Part shown: one piece after another, positions 12,172 through 64,000 of the stretch
How the letters are laid out: every line of letters starts with the position of its first letter
Numbering within the stretch: the stretch's first letter is position 1
DNA from: Candidatus Dormiibacterota bacterium
Lineage (GTDB): Bacteria; Chloroflexota; Dormibacteria; Aeolococcales; Aeolococcaceae
Assembly: GCA_003162415.1 (NCBI GenBank)
Contig: PMOL01000012.1
Span: 16,728 to 80,727, forward strand
Direction of reading: 5' to 3'
DNA length: 64,000 nt
The notes under the pieces: generated by a model
What the model saw: the letters and a program-made list of their open reading frames with translations, nothing else
Told to the model about the DNA's origin: nothing
Database searches by the model: none
Translations under genes and position numbers: made by a program

Positions 12172-12178
12172 GCTCCGG

Positions 12179-48430: not shown

Positions 48431-48506
48431 GCCGAGGTAGCTCAGTTGGTAGAGCACAGGTCTGAAAAACCTGGTGTCGACAGTTCGATTCTGTCCCTCG
48501 GCACCA
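48431..48506 (+). tRNA. tRNA-Phe (anticodon GAA), CCA encoded
   Basis: GCCGAGG/CCTCGGC acceptor, D arm GCTCAGTTGGTAGAGC, anticodon arm CAGGT-CTGAAAA-ACCTG, T arm GACAG-TTCGATT-CTGTC, then ACCA. Confidence 0.92.
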
Positions 48507-48566
48507 CTATTTCGAATACAAAGCTGCACCTTGTGAGCGCAATACGACCACAGATTTGTGTGAAAT

Positions 48567-48588
48567 GACACCTTCGCTGACACCTTCG
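48567..48588 (+). repeat. Tandem GACACCTTCG-ct-GACACCTTCG motif (candidate integrase arm-type sites)
   Basis: Two exact 10-mers, 61 bp after tRNA-Phe and ~95 bp before the integrase start. An inverted copy lies at 58630-58648. Confidence 0.5.
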
Positions 48589-48681
48589 TGAAAGTTTCTC
48601 GCTAGAATCAAAGCGATTCGGCGGAGGTTTCGGGCGACCGAAGCGCTGCTGAAGTGGCTGGCTCGTGGAGGTGATCTGGCG

Positions 48682-49872
48682 GTGGACCCCAATGTCCCGG
48701 TGGCTACAGAACCAGGCCGGTCTCGCGCCCACAGGCGGCGCGACCCCGGCGACGGCTCGATCTTCCAGCGGAGCGATGGTCGCTGGGTCGCCCGGCTCAG
48801 GGACTCAGCAGGACGTCCCCGCTACCTCTACGCGAAGGATCGCGCCCACGCCAAGCAACGCCTTACCGAAGCGCAGACGGTGGTCCACACGGGCCAGCCG
48901 CTCCCAGACCAACGCCTGACCTTTGGGAGGTATCTCCTGGACTGGGTCGCCGGGCTAGGCGCTGGCGTCAAGCCACGGACCGTCGCCTACTACGAGACGT
49001 ACGTGCGCCGGCACCTGCTTCCGAGCGACCTGGCCCAAAAGCCCCTGGCTCGCCTTGAGCCGGCCGATCTGCGCCGGCTCTACGCGACGAAGCTGAGCTC
49101 AGGTCTCAGTTCAACCTCCGTGCATCACATCCACGCGGTCATCCATGTCGCGCTCCAACGTGCTGTGGACGACGGCATCTTGGGGCGCAACGTCGCCGCC
49201 CTCGTGGGGCGCTCGAATCGGCCCAAGGTCCGGCACGTCGAGATGACCACCATTGCTGCGGGTGATGAGCCCCGACGCTTTCTCGAGGCAGCCAAAGGAG
49301 AGCGTTTGGAGGCTCTTCTGGTCCTCGCGCTCACGACCGGGATGCGGCGCGGCGAGCTGCTGGCGCTTCGCTGGAAGGACGTGGATCTCGAGCGGGGGGT
49401 ATTGGCTGTGACCGGGTCGCTCCAAGGCGAGTCACGTCCGACCCTTAGCATCGCAACCCCGAAGTCAGGCAAGTCTCGGTCGGTCGCCCTGGGGACCGTC
49501 GCAGTGACCGCCCTCCGAGAGCATCGCAAGCGGCAAGCGCAGGAGCAACTTCTTGTAGGCGGCGAATGGCGCGAGGTCGGGTTGGTCTTCTCGACGGAGT
49601 ACGGCGACTTCCTTTCTCCGACCACGCTGCGGTTGGCGCTACGGCGCGCGCTTACTCGGGCGGGTCTCCCAACCATCCGGTTCCACGATCTGCGCCATAG
49701 CGCGGCTACTCTAATGCTGAGCCGCGGCGTACATCCGAAGATGGCGTCGGAAATGCTCGGCCACTCGACAATCGCGATCACGCTCGACCTGTACTCCCAT
49801 GTCACGGCGAACATGCAGCGTCAGGCTGCCGACGCCATCGACGCCGCACTTGCGGATCCGGCAACGCCCTAA
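48682..49872 (+). CDS. Tyrosine-type site-specific integrase (intact)
   Basis: 396 aa; N-terminal SAM-like/core-binding region; catalytic residues present: TGMRRGE (Arg), HDLRHS (His-x-x-Arg), LGHS (His), LYSH (Tyr). Confidence 0.92.
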   Translation: MDPNVPVATEPGRSRAHRRRDPGDGSIFQRSDGRWVARLRDSAGRPRYLYAKDRAHAKQRLTEAQTVVHTGQPLPDQRLTFGRYLLDWVAGLGAGVKPRTVAYYETYVRRHLLPSDLAQKPLARLEPADLRRLYATKLSSGLSSTSVHHIHAVIHVALQRAVDDGILGRNVAALVGRSNRPKVRHVEMTTIAAGDEPRRFLEAAKGERLEALLVLALTTGMRRGELLALRWKDVDLERGVLAVTGSLQGESRPTLSIATPKSGKSRSVALGTVAVTALREHRKRQAQEQLLVGGEWREVGLVFSTEYGDFLSPTTLRLALRRALTRAGLPTIRFHDLRHSAATLMLSRGVHPKMASEMLGHSTIAITLDLYSHVTANMQRQAADAIDAALADPATP

Positions 49873-49924
49873 GCCACGCGACGCATCAGGCGGGGATGGC
49901 GCCTAACTGACGATTTCGGCGCCA

Positions 49925-49941
49925 GCGGTTTCGTAAACCGC
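49925..49941 (+). repeat. tRNA-Thr(CGU) anticodon stem-loop-like 17-mer (repeat copy 1)
   Basis: GCGGTTTCGTAAACCGC is identical to 53651-53667. It lies 53 bp after the integrase stop and 4 bp before the GTG of the next ORF. Confidence 0.5.
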
Positions 49942-49944
49942 GAG

Positions 49945-51180
49945 GTGGTCGACGCCAGCGACTCGATCGCCTTTGCCGCCGGCGCTCGACTCGTCCTCTC
50001 CGATCCGCAGCACCTTTATGTGCCGCAGGCGCAGGAGCGGGTCGAGGCATCCCTGCTCCACATCCCGCCGGCAGATCACTTTCTCGCCCCCTTCACGAAC
50101 ATCGCTGCCGGCGCCCTGATCCTGAGCCCTCTGTCCTCCGTTGATCTCGCAACCGAGACCTCGATCGTGGTGGTCATCTCCACCGTGCTCTTCGCGTTCG
50201 CCCTGCTGTTGATGCGGCGTCTGCTGGCACCAGTGTCGTCACGGCCCATGCGGCTGGCGATCGCGGCGGCCACGGTGATGTGCATCCCGGCTGTGGAGGC
50301 TGTCGTGCAGTGGGATTCGCTCTTGACGGTGGCGCTGCTGGGTTCGGTGCTACTCGCCGAGCGACGCCGCTACGACTGGGCGGGCCTGCTCCTCGCGACC
50401 CTGGTCCTCAAACCGCAGGTGGTCTGGCTCGTCGTGGCCGCCGTCGTCGCCGCCCGGTCATGGCGCTATCTCGGAGGGCTCGTCCTCGGTTGCGCTGTCT
50501 GGCTTGCGGTCAGCACCTTCATCGCTGGACCAGCGGCGCTGGTTGCGCTCGCCCAACTGATCGGCAGCAGCTACCCCGGCCAGGCTGGCATCGGCGTCGG
50601 CATTCCCTCGCTCATCTTGGCAGCGACGGGTAACGGAGTCATAGCCTTCATCGCCGCCGGGGGGCTCGGTGTCATTGCGGCTGCGGGATTACTCTCGCGC
50701 CGGGAACTGTTCCGCGGCCGGCCGCTCGCTGCCGTTGCGATCGGTGTGTCGCTGTCGCTGCTGTGCTCCCCGCATGTCAGCCTCGAAGACCTCATGCTCC
50801 TGACCGTGCCGGTTGCATTCATCGCGCGAAGGTGGCCGAAGGTTGCGCTCGGCGAAGCCCTCGCGATCAGCGCAGCGGAACTTGTCCAACTCCAGTTCGC
50901 GGTTGGCGACCGCCATCTCCAGCCGGTTGTGCTTGCGATCATCGCGTCGTCGGCGGTGCTTGCGCTCCTTCCTCCGCGCGATCTGGCATCGCCGGTGCCC
51001 ACGCACAGCGCGAGTCTCCAACTGACTCCGGTCTCTGGCGCCATCGGCGGGTTGATGGAGTTGATGGTCGTGGATACCAGAGCGCTGCCTCAGTCGCGCT
51101 CCGATCGACCAACGCTGGGTGACTTGGCGACACGGCCCCGTAACGGTCCGGATCGCGACTCTGCGCCCGCCCTAGGCTAG
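49945..51180 (+). CDS. Polytopic membrane protein, GT87/DUF2029-like glycosyltransferase, apparently lacking the usual N-terminal TM
   Basis: ~10 TM segments; ...LVLKPQVVWLV... The loop-1-like motif DASDSIAFAAGARLVLSDPQHLY begins at residue 3. Confidence 0.55.
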   Translation: MVDASDSIAFAAGARLVLSDPQHLYVPQAQERVEASLLHIPPADHFLAPFTNIAAGALILSPLSSVDLATETSIVVVISTVLFAFALLLMRRLLAPVSSRPMRLAIAAATVMCIPAVEAVVQWDSLLTVALLGSVLLAERRRYDWAGLLLATLVLKPQVVWLVVAAVVAARSWRYLGGLVLGCAVWLAVSTFIAGPAALVALAQLIGSSYPGQAGIGVGIPSLILAATGNGVIAFIAAGGLGVIAAAGLLSRRELFRGRPLAAVAIGVSLSLLCSPHVSLEDLMLLTVPVAFIARRWPKVALGEALAISAAELVQLQFAVGDRHLQPVVLAIIASSAVLALLPPRDLASPVPTHSASLQLTPVSGAIGGLMELMVVDTRALPQSRSDRPTLGDLATRPRNGPDRDSAPALG

Positions 51181-51185
51181 GCCCC

Positions 51186-52565
51186 GTGCCGCGAGCTACG
51201 ACTCCGCTCTCGACGCGCTGGGCTGAAACGCGTGCGGGGACTCGCCTCGCCACACGGGTCTCGGTCGGCTCCGGAGACGCCACGTTACTGGCGACGGTCG
51301 CGATCGTCCTGGCGCTCATGATCAGCGCGGGATCGAGCAATCCGGCAGCGCTGTTGCTGCTGGCGATCGCATCGGCTCTGCTCATCGCCGCCCGGTCGAT
51401 GGTCGCGGCCGAACCATCGAAAGCCACTTGGGTAGCGGCGATCGCCTGTTGCGCACTCGCCTTCTTCTTCAACACCGATCTCTTCGGAGGACCTGAGGTG
51501 TTCTGCGCTGCTGCAGTGGTCATCGGTGTGGTGATCGCGCTGGCATGGCGATTTCGCAGTGGCGTCGCACTAGCAGCAGCAGCCGCGGTCGCCGCCGCGA
51601 CGCTGCCGTGGCATTGGGGAGTTGGGCTCTTTGATGTCTTCCGCATCGAAGCCGCGGCCGCGCAGAGTTTGCTGCACGGCGGCAACCCATACAGCGCGAC
51701 CATCTACGACCGTGTCCCGATCGCGCCCGGCGTTGTGGTGATCGGTCCCGAGCATCTCCCATACGGACCAACCGTGGCCGCCGCATCGCTGCCCGGCGCG
51801 CTCGTGGGAGATATCCGCGTGGCGTCGGTGCTGTGGGCGATCGCTGCGGCTGGCGCCGTGCTTCTCGTGGCACGTCAGGGGCTGCTCTCGCCGGCAAGCC
51901 AGCGACTCCTGCTCGTACTCACGGTCGCCTTCCCGCTCATACCATCGATGGTCGTGACCGCCTGGCCCGAGACACTGATGGTCGCGACGTTCGGACTCAG
52001 CCTCGCGCTCTTCCGGCGCCATCCAGTCTGGATGGTGGTGGCGATCGCGGCCTGCCTGCTGGTCAAACCGACAGCGCTGGTGCTCTTCTTCCCGTTCTTT
52101 ATCTGGTCCCCGGCGTGGCGCTTGCGGATCGTCGCCGGCAGCCTCCTCGCTCTGGCGGTCATGCTGATCTGCAGCATCGGTGTCGGCATCCCGGCGGTGG
52201 TGTTCGCCACGTTGGTGCGTCATTTCTGGGAGCCGGTGTACTACGACGGGCTGACAGTTGGAGCAGTTGTCCACAATCTGGGCGGAGGCCCACTTCCGGG
52301 ATGGGTCTTCCCCGGAGCGGTCGCGGTGGCGTGCCTCGCAGTGCTGCGAGTCCGGCCCCGAGACACGGCGGATCTCTGCGTCACCGCAGCTTTCCTCTTC
52401 ATGGTGTCAACCGCGTTCGCCTCATATGCGCGATTCAACTTCTACTACGTAGTCGCAGCGGTGCTCCTATTCGCACTTGGCTCCCGCGGCGTCTCCCCCG
52501 AACCGGTGAGCCGCCCATCCCGCGGCGTCAATCCTGCCCGAGTAGCGGCCGTGATCCCAGCCTGA
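51186..52565 (+). CDS. GT87/DUF2029-family polytopic glycosyltransferase (GT-C type)
   Basis: Multi-TM; DVFRIEAAAAQSLLHGGNPY (first-loop Asp motif), ...YGPTVAAASLP..., LLVKPTALVLFFPFF. Confidence 0.65.
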   Translation: MPRATTPLSTRWAETRAGTRLATRVSVGSGDATLLATVAIVLALMISAGSSNPAALLLLAIASALLIAARSMVAAEPSKATWVAAIACCALAFFFNTDLFGGPEVFCAAAVVIGVVIALAWRFRSGVALAAAAAVAAATLPWHWGVGLFDVFRIEAAAAQSLLHGGNPYSATIYDRVPIAPGVVVIGPEHLPYGPTVAAASLPGALVGDIRVASVLWAIAAAGAVLLVARQGLLSPASQRLLLVLTVAFPLIPSMVVTAWPETLMVATFGLSLALFRRHPVWMVVAIAACLLVKPTALVLFFPFFIWSPAWRLRIVAGSLLALAVMLICSIGVGIPAVVFATLVRHFWEPVYYDGLTVGAVVHNLGGGPLPGWVFPGAVAVACLAVLRVRPRDTADLCVTAAFLFMVSTAFASYARFNFYYVVAAVLLFALGSRGVSPEPVSRPSRGVNPARVAAVIPA

Positions 52566-52576
52566 GGCTCGAGCAG

Positions 52577-53305
52577 TTGCGAACCGTAGTCGTGATGCCC
52601 GCGTATAACGCGGCCAAGACGCTCGAGACGACGCTGACGAGGATTCCCCAGGGCATCGTTGACAGAATCATCCTCGTCGACGACGGCAGCCTGGATGGCA
52701 CCGCGGCGCTCGCGGCGTCTTTGGACCTCGTGGTGATCTCGCATCCACACAACGCGGGCTACGGTGCCAACCAGAAGACCTGCTACATCGAGGCACTCCG
52801 CGACGGCGCGGATGTCATCGTCATGCTGCACCCGGACGGTCAGTACGATCCCGTCATCCTCGACGACATGGTTGAGGTCATCCGCAGCGGGCGCGCCGAC
52901 GTCGTGCTCGGCTCACGCTTTTTCACCCCCGGTGGCGCCCGCGCCGGTGGCATGCCCTGGTGGAAACGCCTTGCCAACCGTTTCCTCACCCGCTACGAGA
53001 ATGGCGTGCTTGGGCTTGGACTCACCGAGTACCACACCGGCTATCGCGCGTACAGCCGCAAGTTCCTTACCACCGTGCCGTTTCTGCGCAACTCCAACGA
53101 TTTCGTCTTCGACACCCAGATCCTCACCCAGGCTGCATCGTTCAAGTTCAAGGTTGCCGAGGTCCCTGTCACGACCAAGTACTTCGACGACGCGTCGTCG
53201 GTGAATTTTCGCGTCTCGCTGATCTACGGGCTCAAGACCGTGTGGACCGTCAACCGCTACGTGCTCCATAGCCTCGGGCTTCGCTCGCGCCGCTACTCCC
53301 GATAG
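52577..53305 (+). CDS. Family 2 glycosyltransferase (polyprenyl-phosphate sugar synthase-like)
   Basis: Start near TTG 52577, GTG 52592 or ATG 52595: VVVMPAYNAAKTLE...ILVDDGSLDGT...MLHPDGQYDP...GYRAYSRKFL. The rest of tracked ORF 51833 is out-of-frame overlap. Confidence 0.85.
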   Translation: MRTVVVMPAYNAAKTLETTLTRIPQGIVDRIILVDDGSLDGTAALAASLDLVVISHPHNAGYGANQKTCYIEALRDGADVIVMLHPDGQYDPVILDDMVEVIRSGRADVVLGSRFFTPGGARAGGMPWWKRLANRFLTRYENGVLGLGLTEYHTGYRAYSRKFLTTVPFLRNSNDFVFDTQILTQAASFKFKVAEVPVTTKYFDDASSVNFRVSLIYGLKTVWTVNRYVLHSLGLRSRRYSR

Positions 53306-53650
53306 TCAGCACGCCGCACTTCCGTGCCGAAGGAGCTGACGTTCCCTACTGTCCAGAGGCCGATTCCAACCCCTACGGGCACCGACGCCACCCGAACGAC
53401 ATTCGCGAGGGTCAACCTCATTTAGTCGATGCTAGTGGCCTGGAGTTCGACGAGCGGGTTCTGGCCCTCAGCAGGACGCTGAACGCGGCCGTACATGTGC
53501 TGCCCCAACTTTGAGAGGTTTGAAGGTGGTGCTCGTTCTGTCGGGGCCTTTCGGCTCGCCTCGCCCTCGCGCTCCACCCCCGTTTATGCCGCTTGCCCTG
53601 GCTTTACACCCCCATTATTGAGATTGTGGAACGGTTTTCCCGCACTCGTT

Positions 53651-53700
53651 GCGGTTTCGTAAACCGCTGGCCGGGAGTTCGAATCTCCCCGTCGGCTCCA
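53651..53700 (+). repeat. 3' half of a tRNA-Thr(CGU) gene (repeat copy 2; att-site-like remnant)
   Basis: GCGGT-TTCGTAA-ACCGC (anticodon CGT), TGGCC, GGGAG-TTCGAAT-CTCCC, CGTCGGC-TCCA. No matching 5' acceptor or D arm upstream, so it is not a functional tRNA. Confidence 0.7.
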
Positions 53701-53808
53701 TTGATCGCAATACGATTTCGAGGTCACGGCGCCCCCAACTGAGGCATTCGATTCGCCGATAAATGCCTAGTGACTACTACTGTGACGACTACCAGCGTCC
53801 AGCTACGC

Positions 53809-54111
53809 TCAGATTGGTCTGGCGAGGAGGGTTTCCAAGCGTGCTGCGGCGTCCCGATGAAGGTTGGGCAAGACGCCTGCATACGTATTCGCAGTGAGGG
53901 CAATCGTGCTGTGACCGAGGATGCTGCTCACCGTCTTGAGATCCGTGCCCGACGCAAGCAAGAGCGTGGCGCATCCGTGCCGGAGGCTGTGGAAAGTCCC
54001 CGTATCTACGGGGCGGGTACAACCGATCATGGGCCTGCTCCCACGCCTCGCAGACCGCACACCTTGCCCAATGCGTCCAGCGGAGCCGATGACCGTGCTG
54101 GCACACCTCAC
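53809..54111 (-). pseudogene. Truncated tyrosine integrase (C-terminal catalytic fragment only)
   Basis: ...TFHSLRHGCATLLLASGTDLKTVSSILGHSTIALTANTYAGV... keeps HxxR, His and Tyr but lacks the ~250-aa N-terminal part. Its 3' end faces repeat copy 2. Confidence 0.75.
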
Positions 54112-54196
54112 CTGACCACACCAGTCACATATTCCCCTGACCCAGGAATAGGTGGGACCCGTGCAATGTTGAGGACCAGTGTCCAGCTAGATCCCC

Positions 54197-54883
54197 TCAG
54201 GACAGGCCCTCCAGGGTGCCAGCTATGAGATCAGGCCCTCCTGTGGCGTCGACGAGCATGTGCTTGGTACCGCAGGTGGCACAGATGAACGCTGCGTCGA
54301 GGGGGTGACCGCAGCGACAGGCCCACCCTATGCGTCGAGCCGGGTTGCCCGCCACGACTGCGTGAGCAGGTACGTCACGCGTCGCCACCGCACCGGAACC
54401 AACCATTGACCAGGCGCCGATGCGGACACCGCCAACCACCACCGCATGCGCTCCGATGGCGGCTCCCCGCTCGACCGACACCCCCGAGACCACCCAGTCA
54501 GCGTCGGCCTTGAGCGACCCGTCCGGCGCCGCCGCCCGGGGATAGCGGTCATTGGTCAGGCAGACGCCCGGTCCGATGAACACCTCATCGTCAAGCACAG
54601 CACCGTGGTACAGGAGGGCGTTGTTCTGTATCTTGCAACGACTGCCAACCTGCACGTCGAGATCGATTAGCACGTTTTCGCCGATGATGCAATCGTCGCC
54701 GACGGAGGCGCCGCGGCGGAGGTGTGATCGAGCCCATATCCGAGTACGCAACCCGATTGTGACCCCACTCTCGATGTCCGCTGTCGGATGGAACAGTGGG
54801 GAGCGAGTTTCTGGGGAGCCATGAATCTCGGGCGCGGGAGCCTGTCCAGGACCTTTGGCAGACGTCTCGTCTACAGAGCTCAA
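54197..54883 (-). CDS. Left-handed beta-helix (hexapeptide-repeat) sugar N/O-acetyltransferase with C-terminal Cys4 ribbon
   Basis: Hexapeptide repeats IGENVLIDLDVQVGSRCKIQNNALLYHGAVLDDEVFIGPGVCL..., ...GNPARRIG, then CRCGHPL...CATCG. Confidence 0.85.
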   Translation of the reverse strand: MSSVDETSAKGPGQAPAPEIHGSPETRSPLFHPTADIESGVTIGLRTRIWARSHLRRGASVGDDCIIGENVLIDLDVQVGSRCKIQNNALLYHGAVLDDEVFIGPGVCLTNDRYPRAAAPDGSLKADADWVVSGVSVERGAAIGAHAVVVGGVRIGAWSMVGSGAVATRDVPAHAVVAGNPARRIGWACRCGHPLDAAFICATCGTKHMLVDATGGPDLIAGTLEGLS

Positions 54884-55668
54884 GTCGGATCACCTCGAGG
54901 CATGGGGGCTCGGCACCGACGGAACCGTGCCTCGACTGTGCTCCCTCGTGCAGCGCAGACGATGACGGCGATGCAACATCTCGGCGCAGGCTGGTTCCCG
55001 AGGCGGCACGGGCTCCACCGCCGACGATCTCCAGGACGTGGAGGTCGGCAGCGCTGATGGGCCTTCACGGTCCTCGTCGCCTTCTATCAGAGGCTGCACG
55101 CACGTCACGTCGGTAGTGCTGTCGTCAAGTCTTCGTCGACGCCACCTGGCGCCAGTGGCGCTGTCCGGACTGGACGGCGGCGGCGAACTCCGTGGACACC
55201 ACGGAAGGCGGCGGGGCGGGACACCGGCGGAACCTCGTCAGACGGCGTGGTTAACCATCGATCCCGAAGGGCGAGCCACCTCCCATCGCGGGCGTGGTCC
55301 GTAGCGGGAGCGATGTCGCCGGAGCACGCGACGCGCCGGGATCATGGCAACCGGTGACGTGCGGCCGGGATCGTCGTAACGCATGATCGCCGGCTGTCGA
55401 ACGAGCAGCACGTGCGCGCTCGGTTTCGTGGTCGTCTGTACGCAGGCAGACCGACGGAAGGGCGACACCTGGACACGGGCGACGCCAGTCAACCCGTCCA
55501 CCCGTATCGGTGCCGCCGTGCGTCTCGTTCCGGAATCGTGCTCCCGGTATCAGCACGAGCACGGCGCGGAGGACGAGTGCATCCGTCGCTGGGCGGACTA
55601 ATGCCAATGGCGTCACAGTCGCGCATCGAAGCGGGACCGCGGAGTCGGCCGGCCATAGGCTGTGCCGA

Positions 55669-57330
55669 GTGGCGGACGTACGGACGATCTCATTGGTGTC
55701 CCGCGCCGGCTCGAGGCGCCTGCCGGCATTCGGTGTCGTCGTCGGCATCACGGGCGCGGCCGCGCTCATCTCCTTCGTGGCTACGCTGGTGCGGCTACCC
55801 ACGCTGCTCGCGGCGGTCTATCGGTTCAGCGACGCCCCTGAGCTGAGCTACATCGCGCAGGGGCTAGCGACGGGCCACGGCCCGCAGCTCCTGCCAACTC
55901 AGACGTCGATCGGCGTCATCTGGTTCGACGAGCTGCTCCAGTGGCTGCCGTTCCGCGCCGGCGTCGAGTACTGGACCGGACCCGTCCTCACAGTGGCGAT
56001 GGGGCTGCTCCTCGTCCGCACCGCCCACCTTGTGTTGGGCCGCAAGGGAACGCTCCTCACCTCGGTAATGCTCCTCGTCCTTCCGACCGTGGTGCTCTGG
56101 CCGCTGCTGTTTCCCGACAACCACGTCACCACGTATGCGGCGGCGGTGCTGCTCGGTTGGCACCTCGTCCTCGATTTGCGCCACCGGCGCAGCGTCTGGC
56201 GCTCCGCGATCGTTGGCACCGTCGTCGGCATCGGGGTCGTCACCGATCCACAGCTGCTGGCTTTCGGTCTCGTCCCCTATATCGCGACCGTGGCGGTGCT
56301 GCGGCGGCGGGTCACGGCACCTCAGGTGCGCTCGTTGCTCGTCACGTTGTGTGGAGCGCTGGTGGCCATCGGGCTCGCGTTTGTCGTGATGAACGCTCAG
56401 GGGATCCGCACCATCGCGATCCTGCCCGGCGGCAGCGGTCTGAGCGGCGTGGTCCGAGGCATCGGACTCGCTGTCCAGACGCTCGCGTGGACCATCGGCG
56501 GAGAGTGGTACGGCGACACGATGTCCGTTGTGGCCGTGGGCCTCTGTGTCGCCGCCGCGTTCAGCCTCGTGGCACTCGTTGTGGTCGGCGTTCGTAAGCG
56601 AGCGGGCGCCGAGCCGGGCTTCGCGTCACTGGACATCTCGTTTGCCGGTTTCGGGCTGTTTTGGGGCATGGACTTCGCATTCCTCGTCGGCGCTTTCGTC
56701 TTCCTCGGTTACGGTGCCGGCGGAGCTCCGATGCAAGGTCACTACCTAGTCGGATGCTATGTCGCAGCAGCCGCCCTGATCCCGGCGATTGCCGTGCGTT
56801 ATGGCCCCAAGTCGCTGACGAGGTGGCGCTCAGGTGCCGGGGCTGCAGCGCTCGGCGCCGTGGGCGTGTTCAGTCTGTTCGCTGTCAACAACGCGGTGAG
56901 CACAGCGACCTTCGACGCGTCGCTGTTCTACGACCGTCTTCAGGTGCCGGCGGCCGCAGACCCGTTGCCGGTGCTGCTGGAACACGGACTGACTCACGGA
57001 TACGCGGGGTACTGGGAGTCGTATGACCTCGACTGGCGATCCGATGGGGTCCTGTCGGTATGGCCGCTGCTCGGTGGTGCGGCGTGCGCTGGTGGGACCG
57101 GGAACCTGTGCCCCTATGCCTTTGCCCCGAAAGGCGAGTACACGCCCACCGCCGGGCAGACCTTCGTGATCACGCCGTGGACGGGGGGCGAAAGCTGCGG
57201 GCGTTCCTTGCCGTCAGTGGCGATCTTCGGGCCACCGGAAGCCGTGTACAGGCGCGGCCCGTACACCATCTCCGTGTACGGGTACGACGTGGCCTCGCGG
57301 TTGTCGAAGGACGCGAGCTTGTTCTGTTAA
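55669..57330 (+). CDS. ArnT/PMT-like (GT-C fold) polytopic glycosyltransferase
   Basis: Start provisionally at GTG 55669 (tracked ORF begins at 55510). >10 TM segments; first-loop motif YRFSDAPELSYIAQGLATGHG; soluble Cys-containing C-terminal domain. Confidence 0.7.
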   Translation: MADVRTISLVSRAGSRRLPAFGVVVGITGAAALISFVATLVRLPTLLAAVYRFSDAPELSYIAQGLATGHGPQLLPTQTSIGVIWFDELLQWLPFRAGVEYWTGPVLTVAMGLLLVRTAHLVLGRKGTLLTSVMLLVLPTVVLWPLLFPDNHVTTYAAAVLLGWHLVLDLRHRRSVWRSAIVGTVVGIGVVTDPQLLAFGLVPYIATVAVLRRRVTAPQVRSLLVTLCGALVAIGLAFVVMNAQGIRTIAILPGGSGLSGVVRGIGLAVQTLAWTIGGEWYGDTMSVVAVGLCVAAAFSLVALVVVGVRKRAGAEPGFASLDISFAGFGLFWGMDFAFLVGAFVFLGYGAGGAPMQGHYLVGCYVAAAALIPAIAVRYGPKSLTRWRSGAGAAALGAVGVFSLFAVNNAVSTATFDASLFYDRLQVPAAADPLPVLLEHGLTHGYAGYWESYDLDWRSDGVLSVWPLLGGAACAGGTGNLCPYAFAPKGEYTPTAGQTFVITPWTGGESCGRSLPSVAIFGPPEAVYRRGPYTISVYGYDVASRLSKDASLFC

Positions 57331-57497
57331 GGGCGTCACCTAGGACGACGAACGAAGGTCACGGAATCGACACCCGGCTCGGGGCGGTGGTGAGGCGCTA
57401 CCGCCTTGGAATCCGCACGATGACCGCCTCGTCGCCGTCCCGAACGCGCCATCCCTTCGAGCGGAGACGGTATGGACGAACTCACCGAGTTCCGTGG

Positions 57498-57539
57498 CGT
57501 AAACCGCTGACCGGGAGTGCGAGTCTCCTGCCGGCTACA
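57498..57539 (+). repeat. Diverged tRNA-Thr 3'-half-like repeat (copy 3)
   Basis: CGTAAACCGCTGACCGGGAGTGCGAGTCTCCTGCCGGCTACA aligns with 53658-53700 with 5 substitutions and 1 indel. Direct orientation, 3.8 kb apart. Confidence 0.6.
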
Positions 57540-58131
57540 GGGGCGTCGCGAAGAGCTCGGACGTGAGGCCGCCGACAGGCTCGAGGCACTCATCGGCGGG
57601 GAGTCTCCGCAGAAGCCGTCCCGAGCCGCCATATTTGGCCTGATGTCCGAGGAGCCAACCGACGAGACGATCGCGTTTCTATTCGATCTCGCGCGAGAGA
57701 CGCCCGATCGCGTCATCGACCAACTCAAGTCGCTCCAAGGGCGCGTCACTCAGTCGTTTACTACTGGGACCGTTCTAATCGCGTTTGCCGCCTTCGCCAC
57801 TGTCCCCGGCAGTCATCTGACCCATGCAACCCTTGGTGCCTTGGCAATGGCCGGACTCTCTTACGTATTCTTGACCGTTATTGCCATCCTCACGTTGCTA
57901 CCGAGTTGGGGGTACGGCTTGCCCGCTCCTCCCACACTCTGGAACGATTACCGCACGTACAAGGTGAGATCGATTCAGGAGGCGTTCATCGAAAGGTTGC
58001 GGCTCGACTGGCCCACCGCCAAGAACAAGATCAACGACGCCAAATGGGCTAGTCGTATAGCTGTCTTGTGCGTCGTCGCCGAGGTAATCGCTCTCGCTGT
58101 CGGCCTTGTGCTGTCGCGGGTGAATACCTAG
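57517..58131 (+). CDS. Uncharacterised three-TM membrane protein
   Basis: N-terminal helical region (ETIAFLFDLARETPDRVIDQLKSLQGR), TMs at TGTVLIAFAAFATV, GALAMAGLSYVFLTVIAILTLL and ASRIAVLCVVAEVIALAVGLVL. Start uncertain (57517 or ATG 57643). Confidence 0.5.
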   Translation: MRVSCRLQGRREELGREAADRLEALIGGESPQKPSRAAIFGLMSEEPTDETIAFLFDLARETPDRVIDQLKSLQGRVTQSFTTGTVLIAFAAFATVPGSHLTHATLGALAMAGLSYVFLTVIAILTLLPSWGYGLPAPPTLWNDYRTYKVRSIQEAFIERLRLDWPTAKNKINDAKWASRIAVLCVVAEVIALAVGLVLSRVNT

Positions 58132-58629
58132 AAGCTAGCGAGGAGGTGGCTCACCAAATGGGATCCGCTGTGGGTCGGGCACGGGTGCTCTCGGTTCCGG
58201 GGTCGGGTGCCGAGGTTCGTCCCGGTGGCCGGGCTCGGGATGCGGCTCCCTGGTGGGTTGCCGTGGCTGCTGTGGCTCCCGAGGATCACGCTGCCGGGCT
58301 ATCACGCTCCGTAGGTTACGCTGCCCGTCAGGATTTCCGCGACAGTGCCAAGACAACTCTGATCTTGACCACTTAGTTAACCGCTTTTCGGGGTGATACA
58401 CAGGGGTAACGCGAGCGGTTTAGGCACCAGTCGCTCGCTCCGACGCCCTAGCTCACCTAGGTGGTGTTATCGCCCCGCTCGCCGACCATCCGTCCTGATC
58501 TTCGCGTAGAACTACACGCATCCCAAGTGGCTCGATGCGCACGAGTCCAGCGACACCCGCTGCGCTCGGCCGGGAAGCAGATCCTCGTCCTGCTAGCGTC
58601 CCCTTTCTTGACGCCGACCCGCCACGTGT

Positions 58630-58648
58630 AGGTGTCAGCGAAGGTGTC
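58630..58648 (-). repeat. Inverted copy of the tRNA-Phe-proximal tandem motif
   Basis: AGGTGTCAGCGAAGGTGTC is the exact reverse complement of 48567-48585 (19/19). Confidence 0.55.
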
Positions 58649-58855
58649 TTCTGGCGAGCCGATGCGGCAGCAAGTGCGTTTCGCGAGTACAGGCGGAGTT
58701 CACGCGCAGCCGACGGACCAGGTTTGGTGCACCTGAGTTGGGCGTTGCGTCCATCCCTGGCCGGCGCCTCTGTGGAGGGTGCCGGCAGAGCAGCACCAGG
58801 TTCCTCGTCAAGCGCTAATACGTCCCCTTGATCCATCTAGCCGTTGTCGATTCCG

Positions 58856-58937
58856 GCCGGGTTGCGGCGTGAAGGGCTCGGCGGTCTCAAAAACCGCCGA
58901 GGACAACCTCGTGAGGGTTCGACTCCCTCTCCCGGCA
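58856..58937 (+). tRNA. tRNA-Leu(CAA)-like element, degenerate D arm (possible pseudo-tRNA)
   Basis: Acceptor GCCGGG(T)/(T)CCCGGC, anticodon arm GCGGT-CTCAAAA-ACCGC, long variable arm CGAGG-ACAA-CCTCG, T arm GAGGG-TTCGACT-CCCTC, discriminator A, no CCA. The D stem has a C:C mismatch and a short loop. Confidence 0.4.
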
Positions 58938-59465
58938 CGTTGTTACATAAAGGATTTCGGCTTGACGAGGCCCCTCTCCTGACCACCCGTCGGGCCAGTT
59001 TATAGCCACGCGTGTAGCCACTGGGCGCAACGAACGGGCAGGACGACTGCTGCGATCCGGTCCCACAAGGATGGATGCCGTGGGGGCGCTCGATAGAGGC
59101 GCATCGGGCAGAAGGATAGATGGCGACATCGGGCCTCGGGTTCAAGTGAAGGGTCCGCGACGCGCACCCGGAGCGAGCCCCCATCTAGGGAAGCAACCCT
59201 CGAATGGGAATGAGCTTCAGGGGTTTCGCGGCCACCCATACCCGGTCGCTATCACGCCCGCCTGCCGACCCCTAGAAGTGCATGACACGTCTGAGCACAT
59301 CGCTCGCCAGTTCGAGCAGCCGCGCACGGATCGACAAGCGGCGGACGTCAGGGACCATGTCGGGTGCCAGCGTGACTGACGGGTAAGCCAACGCACCACC
59401 GTTGCCGCCCACGCTGGTAGACCCGCAGGTGCCTGGTGCTGCTACTGTCCCGAATCGTGCTGGGA

Positions 59466-59813
59466 ATGAGGAAGGCGTGGACGTGCGCCCTCGTCGCGGT
59501 AACTAGCTGCTGCCTAATGGCCGACAGCTGCAGTGGCTCGGACACGGTGATCGAACCGACGCCCATAGTCACGTCGCCTGCAGCGACGGCCCACCCGACT
59601 GCGCCCCTCGTACCAGCGCCCGCAACCAAGGCTCCTACCGCAGCGCCATTACCCGTAACCTCTGGGTTCAACCACGCAGCAGCAAGGGCAGCGGGCGCGA
59701 CGGCAATCTGCAAGGACGGTACCTGGAGTTACAGCGCCCACCGCTCAGGGACGTGCTCTGGTCACCACGGCGTCAGTTGGTGGACGGGAAACCTTGGGCC
59801 TGCTGGACCGTAG
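59466..59813 (+). CDS. Secreted DUF3761-domain protein
   Basis: Start at ATG 59466 (MRKAWTCALVAVTSCCLMA signal), P/A/T linker, C-terminal CKDGTWSYSAHRSGTCSGHHGVSWW. Confidence 0.7.
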   Translation: MRKAWTCALVAVTSCCLMADSCSGSDTVIEPTPIVTSPAATAHPTAPLVPAPATKAPTAAPLPVTSGFNHAAARAAGATAICKDGTWSYSAHRSGTCSGHHGVSWWTGNLGPAGP

Positions 59814-60033
59814 AGGTGGCACATCATGCCGCCATCCTGGCCCTCTCACGCGGGAGAGCTTCACCGGCACGAGTGTTGATGACGTGCCCGGCGTCGCGGT
59901 GGAGGCGTACGTCGTCGAGGAGCGAATGGACGAGCCCGACCCGCCTCGTGAGTCCTCGTTCCCCGTCACGCGCCTGGGCAAGCTCCCGCCGGGATTCGGC
60001 GCCCGCCGCTTGGAGCAGCCCGGGGGTAGTGGG

Positions 60034-60354
60034 TCAGTTTGAAATCGAACGTCGCCGCGCGCGAGAGTCGACCCACCAAGAAGCGCCGTAGCAGAGGAAC
60101 ATCGAGACCAGGCCTACCGACCCGATGTCGTTGCCCACAACGCTGGCCGAGTTGGTCGCTAGCAGACTGAACTCGGTTATCACTCCGGCGCTCCCGACGA
60201 TCTGGGCTGCGCCAATCCACCTCTGGGCTGCCGGGGCCTTGGGAAGCCGTCGGCCCAGACGAGAGATAAGAGGTCGCGCGTTGATCAACATCCAGACACC
60301 GTTGAGCATGATCACAACGAGGACCAGGCCCCCGAGCAGGTAGGCGATGTCCAT
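60034..60354 (-). CDS. Small three-TM membrane protein, unknown function
   Basis: MDIAYLLGGLVLVVIMLNGVWMLI..., ...IGAAQIVGSAGVITEFSLLA..., ...VGLVSMFLCYGASWWV. Divergent from the kinase operon. Confidence 0.5.
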   Translation of the reverse strand: MDIAYLLGGLVLVVIMLNGVWMLINARPLISRLGRRLPKAPAAQRWIGAAQIVGSAGVITEFSLLATNSASVVGNDIGSVGLVSMFLCYGASWWVDSRARRRSISN

Positions 60355-60568
60355 ATCACTGAGCCTAGTCCATCTGGAATTGACTTATGGGAGGAGTGAG
60401 ACGATCTCCTTGATCCCCGCCCGGTAGTAGGCTCGCCTTCAACCCGAAACCCATTCCCTTCCTGAAGAGGCCCCTGGCGGCGTGCCGGGGGTCTCTCGCT
60501 TGCGCGGGGTCAGCACGAGGACCCGTTGACCTTGGGGGTGACCGAACTGCGTTACGCTGTCGCCGCCT

Positions 60569-61342
60569 GTGAGCATCACGCGCGATCAACTCGAGCGCCT
60601 CGATCGACGACACCCCGACCCGCCGGCGCTCGCAATTACCCATGCCGGGCCCCCGCTGGTTAACTCCTTAGCAAGTCCGCACAAGTTCGTCTGCAGCAAT
60701 TCGCGCACGTACTGGACCAAACGGAAAACACAACGCGCGTTGGGCGTTGAGCTGATCGCTGGCAGGCTGGCGCATCTGATGGAGGTCGGCCCCAACGCTC
60801 GGCCAGTCATGGTGCCGCAGGCGGCCCTCCCTTCCGATCACTCTGCAGACCACTGCGAGGGACTCTGCGTGGGCTTCGTGGCCGTGCCTGACACCGTGAA
60901 CACCAAGGACCTCCCGACATTCCTGGCTCAGGGTGGCGTCTTCAATCCCGATTCCCTCAACGCGGCTAGCAGGGCGCGGGTCATCGCCTTTCGCGCATGG
61001 ATCGGTGCCGGAGACGCCCAGGCGCTCATACAGTTCAAGACAGGGAAACTCTTGTCCATCGACCATGGTGATGCGCTGGACGTGGCAAGCAGTTCGGTCG
61101 ATGCGCAAGGTGTTAGCGTCTCCGGCGTTGCGGACGATGTTGGCAGAGACGCGAGGCTGGCACGGGTCACTGTTGAGCGCATTGAGAACGTGTCGGAGCA
61201 CGAACTCCTTACCGCTGTGGCTGACGTACCGGATGAGCCCGGCTGGAATTTGGATCTAGACGCCCGTCTCAAGATCGCCGAGTGGCTCGCCAACAGGCGC
61301 GGTAAGATACGTGAGGTGATGTCAAAGTGGTCAATCAAGTAA
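60569..61342 (+). CDS. HipA-family-like (PI3/4-kinase fold) protein kinase
   Basis: ...SRTYWTKRKTQRALGVELIAGRLAHLMEVGPNARPV (nucleotide-binding Lys strand plus helix), ...FRAWIGAGDAQALIQFKTGKLLSIDHGDAL (catalytic-loop Asp; IDHG as DFG equivalent). Recognised by eye only. Confidence 0.6.
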   Translation: MSITRDQLERLDRRHPDPPALAITHAGPPLVNSLASPHKFVCSNSRTYWTKRKTQRALGVELIAGRLAHLMEVGPNARPVMVPQAALPSDHSADHCEGLCVGFVAVPDTVNTKDLPTFLAQGGVFNPDSLNAASRARVIAFRAWIGAGDAQALIQFKTGKLLSIDHGDALDVASSSVDAQGVSVSGVADDVGRDARLARVTVERIENVSEHELLTAVADVPDEPGWNLDLDARLKIAEWLANRRGKIREVMSKWSIK

Positions 61343-62121
61343 TTCAACCAGGCTACTTTTCGCTGCTTCGTTGGCGATCGGATGCGACCCGGGACGAGGC
61401 ACGGAATGTCGCGGTTATCCTCGTCGATGCTGAGGGGATGATTGGAGGGCTGCGGGCCACGGATTCTGTGGCGTCGATTAGTCCTCACCTTGCTGAGCAG
61501 GGACTTCTCGACACCCTTATCCATGGCCTCCAGGCGCGACTCGAAGGCCCGGAAAGACCGGATCTCGCCGAACTGCGACGCATGCACCTATCGCTCCAAG
61601 AGTCGCTGTACCTGACGGAACCCAAGCCGTGCGCTGTTGTCGATGTCGAGCAAACGCTAAACATCCTTTTCAAGGCTTATGTCAAGCGTCCGAGCTTTCC
61701 GAGCGGTCGCACCAAGGGCAAGTTGCTCGTGCAAATCGTCAAAAGGCTGCGTGCCGAGAAGCTCGACGTCCGCCGCGATGCATATGTGGATGACTATCAA
61801 TTTGACGCACTGGTTCGAAACGGAAAAGGTCCGGTCGCTCTGAATGTTCTGACCTTCGCTCAGGCCGCGCGAAAGGACTGGAGAGAGGCTGAGTACGATG
61901 CAAGCCACTTCATCTTCAGCGTCGAGCGAACAGGGCTTCCTGCCGTCGCTTTGTTGGAGGCACCCGGGGACGACTCGCCCGGCACGACACAGGTTCCCTA
62001 CGAGCGGGTAAACCGTTGGTACTCAGACGCCGGGGTGCCCGTCCTAGGACCGGAGGCGGTGATACTCGAGCCACGGCTGGTGATGGAGTCGGCCCACAGC
62101 GTAGCGCCGGCCGCCCGCTAA
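61327..62121 (+). CDS. DUF3037-like protein (N-terminal DUF3037 signature, uncharacterised C-terminal half)
   Basis: GTG start overlaps the kinase 3' end by 16 nt. GYFSLLRWRSDATRDEARNVAVILVDAEG matches the Y-x-R-x(6-8)-E-x-x-N-V-G-V-I-L pattern of DUF3037. Confidence 0.6.
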   Translation: MVNQVIQPGYFSLLRWRSDATRDEARNVAVILVDAEGMIGGLRATDSVASISPHLAEQGLLDTLIHGLQARLEGPERPDLAELRRMHLSLQESLYLTEPKPCAVVDVEQTLNILFKAYVKRPSFPSGRTKGKLLVQIVKRLRAEKLDVRRDAYVDDYQFDALVRNGKGPVALNVLTFAQAARKDWREAEYDASHFIFSVERTGLPAVALLEAPGDDSPGTTQVPYERVNRWYSDAGVPVLGPEAVILEPRLVMESAHSVAPAAR

Positions 62122-62158
62122 GGTCACCCAAATCGCGCTCGGTGTAGCCTCGTGGTCA

Positions 62159-62980
62159 GTGCCACACTCCCTCGTCTGTCGAATCTGTGGTGCGGCGCTG
62201 CCGGCGACACCAGACTATTTCTACGCCCGTGGTGACACTGGAAAGCTCCGCTCCGACTGCAAGCCGTGCTTTCGCGCAGCGAAGACAGCGCGCGACCTCA
62301 GTGACCCCGAGCACCGACGAGCAGCTGCCCGCAAGAGCTACCACAAGGCGGAGCCCGACGGACGGAAGAAGGGCGTGGCGGCCAAGATACGGGCGCGCGA
62401 AGCTAACCCGCCGCTATACGCGGCGATCGCCGAACGGTACGAGACCCGACACCTAGCCGAGCGGACTTCGCGCCGGAAGGAGTGGCTCTCGGCCCATCGC
62501 AAGGAGGAGAACGCCAAGTCACGGGCCTGGTACTACGCCAACCGCGAGCGCGCCATCGCAACGGCATGCGCCTGGCAAGAGGGGCACCGCGAGCAACACA
62601 AGGCGAATGTGGTGAACGTTCGTACTCGACGGAGGGGCGCACCTGGTGCTGGCTTCTCTGGCCGCGCCTTCGCGGCACTGGTGGAGACGTATGGTGGGCT
62701 ATGCGCTTATTGCAGCGACCCCCTCGGTGACGATTACGAGCCGGACCACGTTGTCGCCTTAGGGCGCGGGCGAGGTGGACACAACGTGATCGACAACATC
62801 GTGCCTGCGTGCAAGCCTTGTAACCGCGCGAAGTCTTCCAAAACGGTGGAGACGTGGCTCGAGATCCTCCTGCGAGAGGGACTCGGGGCGAACATCCACC
62901 CGCTCGCGCTACCGGTGCTGCAAGCAAACGCGCCGGCGGCTGTCTGGCTTCGAGTCCTTGCCGCACGGACGGTCCCATGA
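62159..62980 (+). CDS. HNH endonuclease with N-terminal zinc ribbon and basic helical region
   Basis: CRICGAAL...CKPC; C-terminal CAYCSDPL...EPDHVVALGRGRGGHNVIDNIVPACKPCNRAKS (HNH/His-Me finger). Confidence 0.85.
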   Translation: MPHSLVCRICGAALPATPDYFYARGDTGKLRSDCKPCFRAAKTARDLSDPEHRRAAARKSYHKAEPDGRKKGVAAKIRAREANPPLYAAIAERYETRHLAERTSRRKEWLSAHRKEENAKSRAWYYANRERAIATACAWQEGHREQHKANVVNVRTRRRGAPGAGFSGRAFAALVETYGGLCAYCSDPLGDDYEPDHVVALGRGRGGHNVIDNIVPACKPCNRAKSSKTVETWLEILLREGLGANIHPLALPVLQANAPAAVWLRVLAARTVP

Positions 62981-63219
62981 GCCGCTTAGTCCCCGCGGAC
63001 GAGCCCTGGGTCGCATTCCTCGGTTTTGGGCCGGAGATGCGCGCGCGACCAGATGATGGTCTCATCCACTATCGGGGCGCGGGTCGGTTTCTGGGGCCGC
63101 GAACCCTCTGTGGGAAGCTTGGCCGTCGGCGCTGGAAAGGTAGCGGGCGGCTCTGTCGTGAGTGCGATGCCCTGGCTGGACCTCCTGATCGCACTGTCCA
63201 GCGACCCGACTCAAACTGA
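62977..63219 (+). CDS. Small Cys-containing protein coupled to the HNH gene
   Basis: ATG 62977 overlaps the HNH stop (ATGA): MSRLVPADEPWVAFLGFGPEMRARPDDGLIHYRGAGRFLGPRTLCGK...CRECDAL. No family recognised. Confidence 0.4.
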   Translation: MSRLVPADEPWVAFLGFGPEMRARPDDGLIHYRGAGRFLGPRTLCGKLGRRRWKGSGRLCRECDALAGPPDRTVQRPDSN

Positions 63220-63998: not shown

Positions 63999-64000
63999 GA

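Follow-up and report, generated by a model that had tools for sequence, protein, structure and literature searches.

A probable decayed mosaic island with envelope-glycosylation genes at a tRNA-Phe integration hot spot of Candidatus Dormibacterota

In a 64-kb stretch of DNA from Candidatus Dormibacterota (hereafter the window, meaning the whole stretch analysed), the tRNA-Phe gene is followed by a tyrosine integrase gene and by several genes for the modification of surface glycans. We consider it rather probable that the segment from ~48.5 to 58.7 kb is what now occupies a hot spot of integration just 3' of tRNA-Phe in this clade, and that it represents a decayed mosaic island with an envelope-glycosylation cargo. 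That the locus is an integration hot spot follows from its variable content among related genomes, the orthologous integrases found at the same place and the right attachment sites (attR) present in relatives. According to our model, the cargo would occupy a slot between the integrase and a right-end landmark, the contents of which vary by species. In the window, two blocks would fill this slot, block A with a glycosyltransferase (GT) operon and block B with the genes of an acetyltransferase (HEXA) and of a membrane glycosyltransferase (O606) together with a decayed element that targeted tRNA-Thr. The features and their short names are collected in Table 1.

A hot spot of integration downstream of tRNA-Phe

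Related genomes were recruited via the gene located just upstream of tRNA-Phe, relatives of which are 56-96% identical in 80 genomes. The comparison set consists of the tRNA-Phe loci of these 80 species-representative genomes (labels of the type L001). Most of the genomes are labelled Candidatus Dormibacterota or Dormibacteria, and the host of the window belongs to Candidatus Dormibacterota, an uncultured soil lineage that is abundant in cold and peat soils. Upstream of the site, the order tRNA-Val, response regulator, histidine kinase, two small genes and tRNA-Phe is kept in all close relatives. Downstream of tRNA-Phe, nearly every cluster of open reading frames (ORFs) is unique to one species. 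A preliminary description of the window had proposed a mosaic, integrase-associated insert at tRNA-Phe, and the hypervariable content and different gene order of the relatives agree with that proposal.

The integrase reported in that description is indeed intact, and its translation shows the RxxR, HxxR and Tyr catalytic motifs. Orthologues with 79-97% amino acid identity directly follow tRNA-Phe in six species (L008, L016, L020, L029, L039 and L071). The cargo behind these orthologues is unrelated: L016 has genes for an AIPR protein and a large helicase, L008 one for a resolvase and L020 one for a PadR regulator. The most similar orthologue, apparently frameshifted, is found ~180-1320 nt after tRNA-Phe in L016, a metagenome-assembled genome (MAG) named palsa_871. 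The two integrase genes are 90.7% identical at the nucleotide level, and the core of the two genomes only 81%; elsewhere, integrase divergence roughly follows that of the core. The AIPR abortive-infection protein and the 1118-aa helicase-like protein of the L016 island represent a defence-type cargo at the same hot spot. Empty tRNA-Phe sites, which the preliminary description had recommended looking for in relatives, were also found: in the distant relatives L064 and L076, conserved genes begin 10-55 nt after tRNA-Phe, and the site of L014 is nearly empty.

The attachment (att) core used in this clade can be defined from the relatives. The last 45 nt of tRNA-Phe (CTGAAAAACCTGG...CCA) are perfectly repeated downstream of the gene, at 6.5 kb in L026, 6.5 kb in L077 and 4.6 kb in L080, and these repeats are attR sites. 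A degenerate copy of the core is present in L011. The resident family of tyrosine integrases would thus recognize the 45-nt 3' part of tRNA-Phe as att core, together with arm motifs of sequence GACACCT-N5-GACACCT. This motif occurs twice in the window, at 48567-48585 (+) and 58630-58648 (-), where 0.02 occurrences are expected, with one copy at each end of the segment. It is found 61 nt after tRNA-Phe in ~12 relatives, with or without integrase, and exactly 142 nt upstream of every attR repeat in L026, L077 and L080, in the same orientation. This is the pattern expected of the arm-type sites of an integrase, and we propose that function for the motif.

Relatives without integrase (L001, L002, L013, L018 and L022) retain the left arm with its arm motif, i.e. 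the first 60-180 nt after tRNA-Phe. In L001, the homology ends 4 nt into the integrase ORF, which suggests a deletion of the integrase rather than a never-occupied site. Another motif, (T)CGAATACGA, lies just downstream of att sites of both the tRNA-Phe and tRNA-Thr types, at 48507-48520 and 53701-53715 in the window and at L109 and other tRNA-Thr loci, and also inside the P arms of attR in L026, L077 and L080. Both types of element may share it as a binding site for an accessory protein or an integrase.

At the right end of the segment, an inverted arm motif is followed after ~70 nt by a conserved hairpin, AGGTTTGGTGNACCT. The distance between tRNA-Phe and this landmark differs widely among genomes. 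It amounts to 174 nt in the nearly empty, integrase-less site of L014, 1.5 kb in L029, where the integrase alone lies in between, 4.0-5.4 kb in L007, L020, L022, L013 and L008, and 10.2 kb in the window. We take the interval between integrase and landmark as the cargo slot, here 49.9-58.6 kb, close to the limits given by the preliminary description. We also considered the landmark as a decayed attR, but its likeness to the att core is too short (~10 nt) to decide.

Table 1. Features of the tRNA-Phe locus and of the slot, with window coordinates and GC content at third codon positions (GC3)
Feature	Position	Strand	GC3	Evidence and remarks
tRNA-Phe(GAA)	48431-48506	+		ARAGORN; Rfam 73.9 bits
att core, 3' 45 nt of tRNA-Phe from anticodon loop to CCA	48462-48506	+		Used by islands in relatives
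Putative arm-type motif GACACCT-N5-GACACCT, left (P' arm)	48567-48585	+		61 nt after tRNA end; occurrence statistics, position in relatives
Intact tyrosine integrase, 396 aa	48682-49872	+	0.76	PF00589 E=1e-27; starts 176 nt past tRNA-Phe end
19-nt copy of tRNA-Thr(CGU) anticodon arm (CAGCGGTTTCGTAAACCGC)	49923-49941	+		Directly before GT87a start codon; 17-nt exact repeat with 53651-53667; matches full tRNA-Thr genes
GT87a, GT87-family GT-C glycosyltransferase, 411 aa	49945-51180	+	0.78	PF09594 E=2.6e-10, 40.9 bits (cutoff 25); ~7 or more transmembrane (TM) segments
O459, divergent GT87-like membrane protein, 459 aa	51186-52565	+	0.76	Multi-TM; begins 5 nt after GT87a
GT2, polyprenyl-phosphate-sugar synthase class (PpgS/DPM1/AglJ-like), 242 aa	52577-53305	+	0.84	PF00535 E=2.7e-19; no TM segment (TM scan); 11 nt after O459
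Perfect 50-nt 3' fragment of tRNA-Thr(CGU), att-type relic	53651-53700	+		36-nt core exact in metagenome contigs
C-terminal stub of second tyrosine integrase, 73 aa	53809-54030	-		PF00589 positions 128-168 of 172, E=5.6e-10
HEXA, left-handed beta-helix hexapeptide N-acetyltransferase, WlbB/QdtC/FdtD class	54197-54883	-	0.70	PDB and NCBIfam matches
O606, GT-C-fold membrane glycosyltransferase of unnamed family, 553 aa	55669-57330	+	0.82	AlphaFold2 model and Foldseek
Degenerate tRNA-Thr 3' fragment starting inside anticodon loop (CGTAAACC...)	57498-57540	+		90% identity over 31 nt to 53658-53688; by-eye alignment to tRNA-Thr
162-aa protein, 2 predicted TM	57643-58131	+		Gene call on source scaffold L083; no Pfam or PADLOC match
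Right-end landmark: inverted arm motif (58630-58648), ~70-nt spacer, hairpin AGGTTTGGTGCACCT (58720-58734)	58630-58735	.		Recurs in L014, L029, L007, L020, L022, L013, L008
tRNA-Leu(CAA)-like gene just outside slot, authenticity uncertain	58856-58938	+		ARAGORN

Glycan-modification genes and tRNA-Thr relics in the slot

The glycan-related genes listed in the preliminary description, namely two for GT87-like proteins, one for a GT2, one for an acetyltransferase and one for a GT-C enzyme, are all present. The three genes of block A (49.9-53.3 kb), two for GT87-type GT-C enzymes and one for a soluble GT2 of the PpgS/DPM1 class, are separated by gaps of 5 and 11 nt and have the appearance of an operon. 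The Pfam signature of GT87, PF09594, is found in 33 of 33 homologues of GT87a. On its own, O459 matches Pfam GT87 below threshold (E=0.011, 16 bits), and 10 of the 16 members of its family match it, the best at 4e-7. In an HHalign comparison, the O459 family aligned with that of GT87a over 230 columns, including the K-P-(Q/T) region, with 88% probability and E=3e-6. The best NCBIfam matches of the GT2 are PpgS (4.9e-26), AglJ, dolichyl-P-hexose transferase and ArnC, and its best PDB match is DPM synthase (5MLZ, 2e-8). Families unrelated to polyprenyl-phosphate glycosylation would have spoken against the preliminary description; the assignments support instead a polyprenyl-phosphate-dependent class of enzymes, with a predicted GT2 synthase and GT-C transferases. 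A second gene of the GT2 family is found at 11843-12883, in the conserved part of the window, and its product is 26% identical to the island GT2 (tblastn E=3.5e-9).

Sequence searches with O606 against Pfam, NCBIfam and the PDB, using the single sequence or a 64-member profile, gave no match. An AlphaFold2 model built from the 64-sequence alignment has a predicted local distance difference test score (pLDDT) of 89.8 and a predicted TM-score (pTM) of 0.91; with a shallow alignment, the pLDDT was 60 and the result not usable. In a Foldseek search of the PDB, the top 19 matches are all GT-C enzymes (STT3, AglB, PglB, AftA, ArnT). The best global TM-scores, 0.47-0.51, were obtained with ArnT, a likeness at the level of the fold only. 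The catalytic acidic residue of GT-C enzymes sits in the loop after the first helix. In O606 this loop, which follows TM1, contains Asp55, conserved without exception in 64 diverse family members. A small domain of mixed structure, with four conserved cysteines, makes up the last ~110 residues and would lie outside the membrane. The model, which is of high confidence, shows a GT-C fold; we call O606 a putative transferase of this fold from an unnamed family and not a member of the ArnT/PMT families (GT83/GT39). The ArnT/PMT-like GT-C enzyme of the preliminary description is thus retained for its fold, in the model and by Foldseek, but not for its sequence family, as there is no Pfam match.

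None of the 38 close homologues of O606 has a Pfam domain, and the single one with a named source comes from a Dormibacteraeota MAG. Profile searches collected at least 606 clusters at 50% identity, and one distant member matches PMT_2 below threshold (E=8e-4). In P0206, a protein of 1418 residues, a YfhO (GT-C) domain is fused to a full-length domain of the O606 family, which links this family to known enzymes of teichoic-acid glycosylation. In another Dormibacterota (L085, 8732-12993), the gene of an O606 homologue (72% identity) is flanked on one side by that of a membrane acyltransferase of the Acyl_transf_3 type and on the other by a GT87 gene. This cluster adjoins an HNH/DUF222 gene and represents a second, differently built surface-glycan cluster.

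Block B (53.7-57.5 kb) consists of the divergent HEXA/O606 pair beside the integrase stub, between att fragments of tRNA-Thr(CGU). HEXA matches WlbB (3MQG, 1.1e-37), a WxcM/FdtD-like protein (4MZU, 9e-27), a related N-acetyltransferase (7S43, 1.5e-23) and QdtC (3FS8, 3e-17) in the PDB; it scores 93.6 bits with the NeuD/PglB/VioB family of NCBIfam, under the threshold of 160.8. We take its PDB relatives WlbB, FdtD and QdtC to be soluble enzymes that N-acetylate nucleotide-linked 3-amino sugars. Phage Oac, by comparison, is a membrane O-acetyltransferase of the Acyl_transf_3 type. HEXA is therefore predicted to be a cytoplasmic N-acetyltransferase of nucleotide-linked amino sugars of the WlbB/QdtC type, not an Oac. 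Between the divergent HEXA and O606 genes, ~540 nt (55019-55558) are absent from the otherwise collinear copies of L080 and L002, and we found no ORF, repeat or terminal inverted repeat in this extra sequence to account for its presence.

The truncated integrase and the tRNA-derived repeats mentioned in the preliminary description were confirmed, but the repeats derive from tRNA-Thr(CGU), not from tRNA-Phe, and are relics of a different element. The anticodon arm GCGGT-TTCGTAA-ACCGC is common to all three of them. The 19-nt copy spans positions ~25-43 of tRNA-Thr, and L020 has its first 13 nt after its own integrase before diverging. At least 120 metagenome contigs from soil and peat contain an exact match to the 36-nt core of the perfect fragment, mostly within complete tRNA-Thr(CGU) genes. 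Other contigs carry a tRNA-Thr fragment that starts with GGTTTCG and has the usual look of an att site, and in two metagenome contigs a tRNA and a fragment, or two fragments, lie 10.7 and 3.1 kb apart. No tRNA-Thr fragment was found in the 80 related loci. The integrase stub is 48% identical over 60 residues to the intact integrase and 45-58% identical (60 residues) to integrases encoded beside a tRNA-Thr gene or fragment in L128, L136 and L151. Because of this tRNA-Thr origin and of the similar integrases beside such sites, the stub and the fragments that flank it (53651-53700 and 57498-57540) would be what remains of an element that targeted tRNA-Thr and lies nested within the slot at tRNA-Phe. 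An integron-like cassette array with the tRNA-Thr arm copies as attC-like sites was considered and rejected, as the fragments are ordinary att relics that are widespread in metagenomes, genes lie on both strands, and the HEXA-O606 module occurs in relatives without such sites.

Given a GT2 synthase and a GT-C enzyme encoded beside an integrase at a tRNA, a layout known from gtr islands and prophages, the segment might be the remnant of a phage with a serotype-conversion module, whose gtr/oac-like genes would alter a phage receptor. The logic of such modules has been reviewed (PMC8035078). The integrase also has distant viral relatives, with 27-44% identity. Nevertheless, no phage structural, lysis or replication gene was called between 48.5 and 58.7 kb, and a pattern-seeded scan of IMG/VR, of limited sensitivity, found no contig with a relative of O606 or O459. 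GtrA is missing as well: the preliminary description saw no GtrA-type flippase, and we found no small ORF with three or four TM segments from 48.4 to 64 kb. Besides the three large GT-C membrane proteins, no ORF there has more than two hydrophobic segments, which leaves no GtrA-like candidate, and no GtrA Pfam match was obtained among the scanned proteins; a flippase may be encoded elsewhere in the genome. HEXA resembles the soluble WlbB and not the Oac of the Acyl_transf_3 type. Lastly, Dormibacterota are placed within the Terrabacteria, a group of mostly monoderm lineages, either as sister of Chloroflexota or as part of them (PMC10608941). From this placement, lipopolysaccharide (LPS) is probably absent in the host, and an O-antigen would thus be unlikely. 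Altogether, a prophage-type module appears very improbable. The logic of phage gtr/oac seroconversion invoked in the preliminary description holds as far as the GT2 and GT-C classes are concerned; it fails for the Oac-type acetyltransferase, the phage genes and the O-antigen host, and remains an analogy of logic only.

Our preferred reading, that of an island with envelope-glycosylation genes, suggests how their products might work. Multi-component glycosylation across the membrane relies on three activities, those of a GT-A synthase, of a flippase and of a GT-C enzyme; one flippase, encoded at another locus, can be shared by several GT-A/GT-C pairs, and soluble GT-A enzymes can function with a separate membrane partner (PMC8035078). 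An example with a GT2 is provided by PpgS, which acts with Rv3779 in the modification of arabinogalactan via polyprenyl-P-GalNAc (PMC3485146). By analogy, the window GT2 would charge polyprenyl phosphate, on the cytoplasmic side of the membrane, with a sugar taken from a nucleotide donor. The lipid-linked sugar would then be carried across by a flippase from another locus, and the GT-C enzymes would transfer it to an envelope glycan, a lipoglycan or a glycoprotein outside the membrane. In the cytoplasm, HEXA would produce a nucleotide-linked, N-acetylated amino sugar. Such a pathway would result in a species- or strain-specific decoration of the envelope, for which a putative role in phage-receptor masking is plausible, if speculative.

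Age, mobility and limits of the island

The whole island is collinear and 98.6% identical at the nucleotide level in an independent Joint Genome Institute (JGI) metagenome contig from another sample, which covers 11 kb end to end and spans all junctions from the flanking gene to the landmark. The O606 and GT87a genes are also identical in Logan read assemblies. The collinearity in a second sample demonstrates short-term stability, and it rules out a chimera of metagenome assembly or binning, an explanation that the origin of the window from a metagenome scaffold might bring to mind but that has next to no likelihood.

Several observations weigh against the island reading. The HEXA-O606 module (54245-57343) is 90-92% identical at the nucleotide level to those of L080 and L002, and the core flank 88.6% and 91.6%, respectively; this divergence, similar to that of the core, indicates an old resident and not a recent acquisition. 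In addition, the module occurs in L080 and L002 without tRNA-Thr fragments, and in L080 it starts ~450 nt after an attR repeat, outside the newest insert. Homologues of O606, O459 and GT87a (45-72% identity) are found singly in ordinary chromosomal contexts elsewhere, one of which contains two GT87 genes in tandem. A compositional shift exists but is modest: GC3 is 0.846 +/- 0.037 in the core and 0.70-0.84 in the island genes (z -0.3 to -3.9), with GT2 and O606 inside the core range, and the overall GC content is 65.4%, compared with 67.1% in the core. Furthermore, every NCBIfam match of the GT2 is far below its equivalog cutoff, partner enzymes for HEXA are not encoded in the segment, and neither is a flippase. 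From its positions, the landmark would be an element end or an ancestral flank. Finally, a search for an attR of tRNA-Phe on both strands with up to 25% mismatches found none in the window or up to ~73 kb.

The similar divergence of HEXA-O606 and core, the core-like GC3 of GT2 (0.84) and O606 (0.82), and the homologues in non-island contexts would fit an ancestral chromosomal envelope-biosynthesis locus that happens to lie beside an integrase, its GT genes being ordinary host genes that were never cargo. The distribution of the genes argues against such a locus. Among the 80 loci, GT87a has no tblastn match (E<=1e-5), GT2 has only weak ones (27-30% identity) in three distant loci, O459 is found in two (L005 and L030), and HEXA-O606 in two (L080 and L002). 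The O459 relatives are 72-74% identical, compared with 80% for the core, and are inverted among unrelated genes. L001, the closest relative with sequence past the tRNA (core flank 88.1% identical at the nucleotide level), has none of the cargo genes within 10 kb. The orientation and position of the shared modules differ in every genome that shares them, and in the window, att-type tRNA-Thr fragments and an integrase stub divide the blocks, which the integrase arm motif brackets. GC3 is lowered in the integrase, GT87a, O459 and HEXA genes (z -1.6 to -3.9). We thus regard an ancestral locus as unlikely. The preliminary description had stated that it would be contradicted by relatives with the same gene order and no compositional shift; in the 80 genomes the gene order is not the same, and a shift in GC3, if modest, exists. 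All modules shared with relatives (54245-57343 and 51235-52493, compared with L080, L002, L005 and L030) are in the opposite orientation in the window, and the orientation of the integrase is the usual one. An inversion of the whole slot between the inverted 19-nt motifs was rejected, since the integrase lies inside the interval and is nonetheless canonically oriented.

Another possibility is that the segment is an active, excisable element with a non-canonical right end, located at the landmark hairpin or at the tRNA-Leu-like gene. The integrase is intact, a perfect 19-nt arm motif is present at both ends, the hairpin stem CAGGT/ACCTG equals the anticodon stem of tRNA-Phe, and the similarity of the integrase to that of L016, higher than that of the core, hints at an exchange. 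However, the two arm motifs of the window face in opposite directions, those of the attR-bearing relatives in the same direction, and the likeness of the landmark to the att core is limited to ~10 nt. Moreover, the second sample shows no sign of an alternative junction, and the landmark of L014 lies beside the tRNA without any integrase. We consider an active element improbable. In the absence of a second tRNA-Phe core up to ~73 kb, canonical excision of the whole segment is unlikely; the island has probably lost its attR and become fixed. The suggestion of the preliminary description that the island may mobilise surface-glycan variation is therefore not supported, as the island is probably not excisable as a unit.

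The right limit that it placed at 58937 agrees roughly with the position of the landmark, but DNA with low GC3 continues to at least 73 kb. The genes past 57.5 kb have GC3 values of 0.65-0.79 as far as 73 kb, and atypical DNA therefore extends beyond the slot. No conserved right flank matching those of the relatives was found along the source scaffold to 73 kb. The stretch from 57344 to 64000 and on to ~73 kb (source scaffold L083, and L094) contains an overlapping three-gene set that ends in an HNH endonuclease gene (62159-62980, weak PtuB-like HNH match), as well as genes for a HAD hydrolase, a Kelch-repeat protein and an IS110 transposase (~67.8-68.8 kb). PADLOC gave only a generic HNH match for the downstream genes, and scans for promoters and terminators gave nothing above chance. 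The best Rfam match of the tRNA-Leu(CAA)-like gene is the tRNA-Sec model, with 34.3 bits, below the gathering score. The acceptor stem contains a U-U mismatch, the D stem has 3 bp, CCA is not encoded, and nothing similar was found in 2.3 Mb of sequence from related loci. The gene may be a tRNA borne by the island or a pseudo-tRNA.

Comparison with known systems and significance

The segment resembles the tRNA-linked islands of other bacteria, such as those at pheV and pheU in enterobacteria or the integrative elements of actinomycetes, in that an integrase is encoded at the 3' end of a tRNA gene whose sequence from the anticodon loop to CCA forms the att core. As in those islands, the insert is sporadic among relatives, the cargo differs from genome to genome, and tandem accretion and decay are seen in relatives. 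Thus, an integrase at a tRNA, a sporadic distribution and empty sites in relatives, all usual marks of an island, were observed here, and an attR was not. The window differs from these islands by its lack of attR, by the nested relic of a tRNA-Thr-specific element and by the absence of conjugation or replication genes. Part of its cargo also appears to be vertically inherited in a subclade, and the lineage is that of the uncultured Dormibacterota.

As in the GtrABC, CsbB/GtcA/YfhO, GtlA/GtlB and PpgS/Rv3632/Rv3779 systems, a GT2 that is predicted to belong to the polyprenyl-P-sugar synthase class is encoded together with GT-C transferases, and like PpgS it is short and soluble. Unlike these multi-component systems, the segment encodes no flippase or small membrane partner, has three GT-C genes for one GT2 gene, and none of its proteins attains an equivalog-level score. 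With the gtrABC and oac modules of Shigella and Salmonella phages, it shares glycan-modifying genes beside an integrase at a tRNA and a content that varies between close relatives. In contrast with those modules, it is not a prophage, it lacks GtrA, its acetyltransferase is predicted to be a cytoplasmic N-acetyltransferase and not a membrane O-acetyltransferase, and the O-antigen is probably absent from the host. The GT87 enzymes of mycobacteria, e.g. Rv2181 and PimE, are polyprenyl-phosphomannose-dependent mannosyltransferases. GT87a passes the Pfam threshold of that family, and both GT87-like proteins of the window are multi-TM proteins with the region of the K-P-(Q/T) motif. Nevertheless, the score of O459 does not reach the family threshold, the host lies outside the actinobacteria, and a pathway for phosphatidylinositol mannosides, lipomannan and lipoarabinomannan is not implied.

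It is well known that genomic islands can vary surface glycans. The segment is probably an ordinary island of this kind that has lost its mobility, in a little-studied lineage. New here are the lineage itself, the definable architecture of att and arm sites at the hot spot and the unnamed GT-C family. What the locus shows for this clade is a hot spot of the classical kind, at tRNA-Phe, for which an att core and arm motifs can be delimited. Part of the species-dependent gene content at this site concerns envelope glycosylation, and one of these genes represents a sizeable GT-C family that lacks a name and a model. These findings can be of use for the annotation of MAGs and for the choice of targets in heterologous glycobiology, and leave the understanding of such islands and glycosylation systems unchanged. 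A broader proposal, which we put forward tentatively and regard as rather doubtful, is that the integrase, arm motifs and landmark define a dedicated tRNA-Phe slot through which envelope-decoration and defence genes are swapped between Dormibacterota lineages, and that O606 founds a family of GT-C enzymes that decorate a presumably monoderm envelope. If both parts were true, the locus would be a way into the study of surface variation and of the dynamics between phages and hosts in a phylum without a cultured member.

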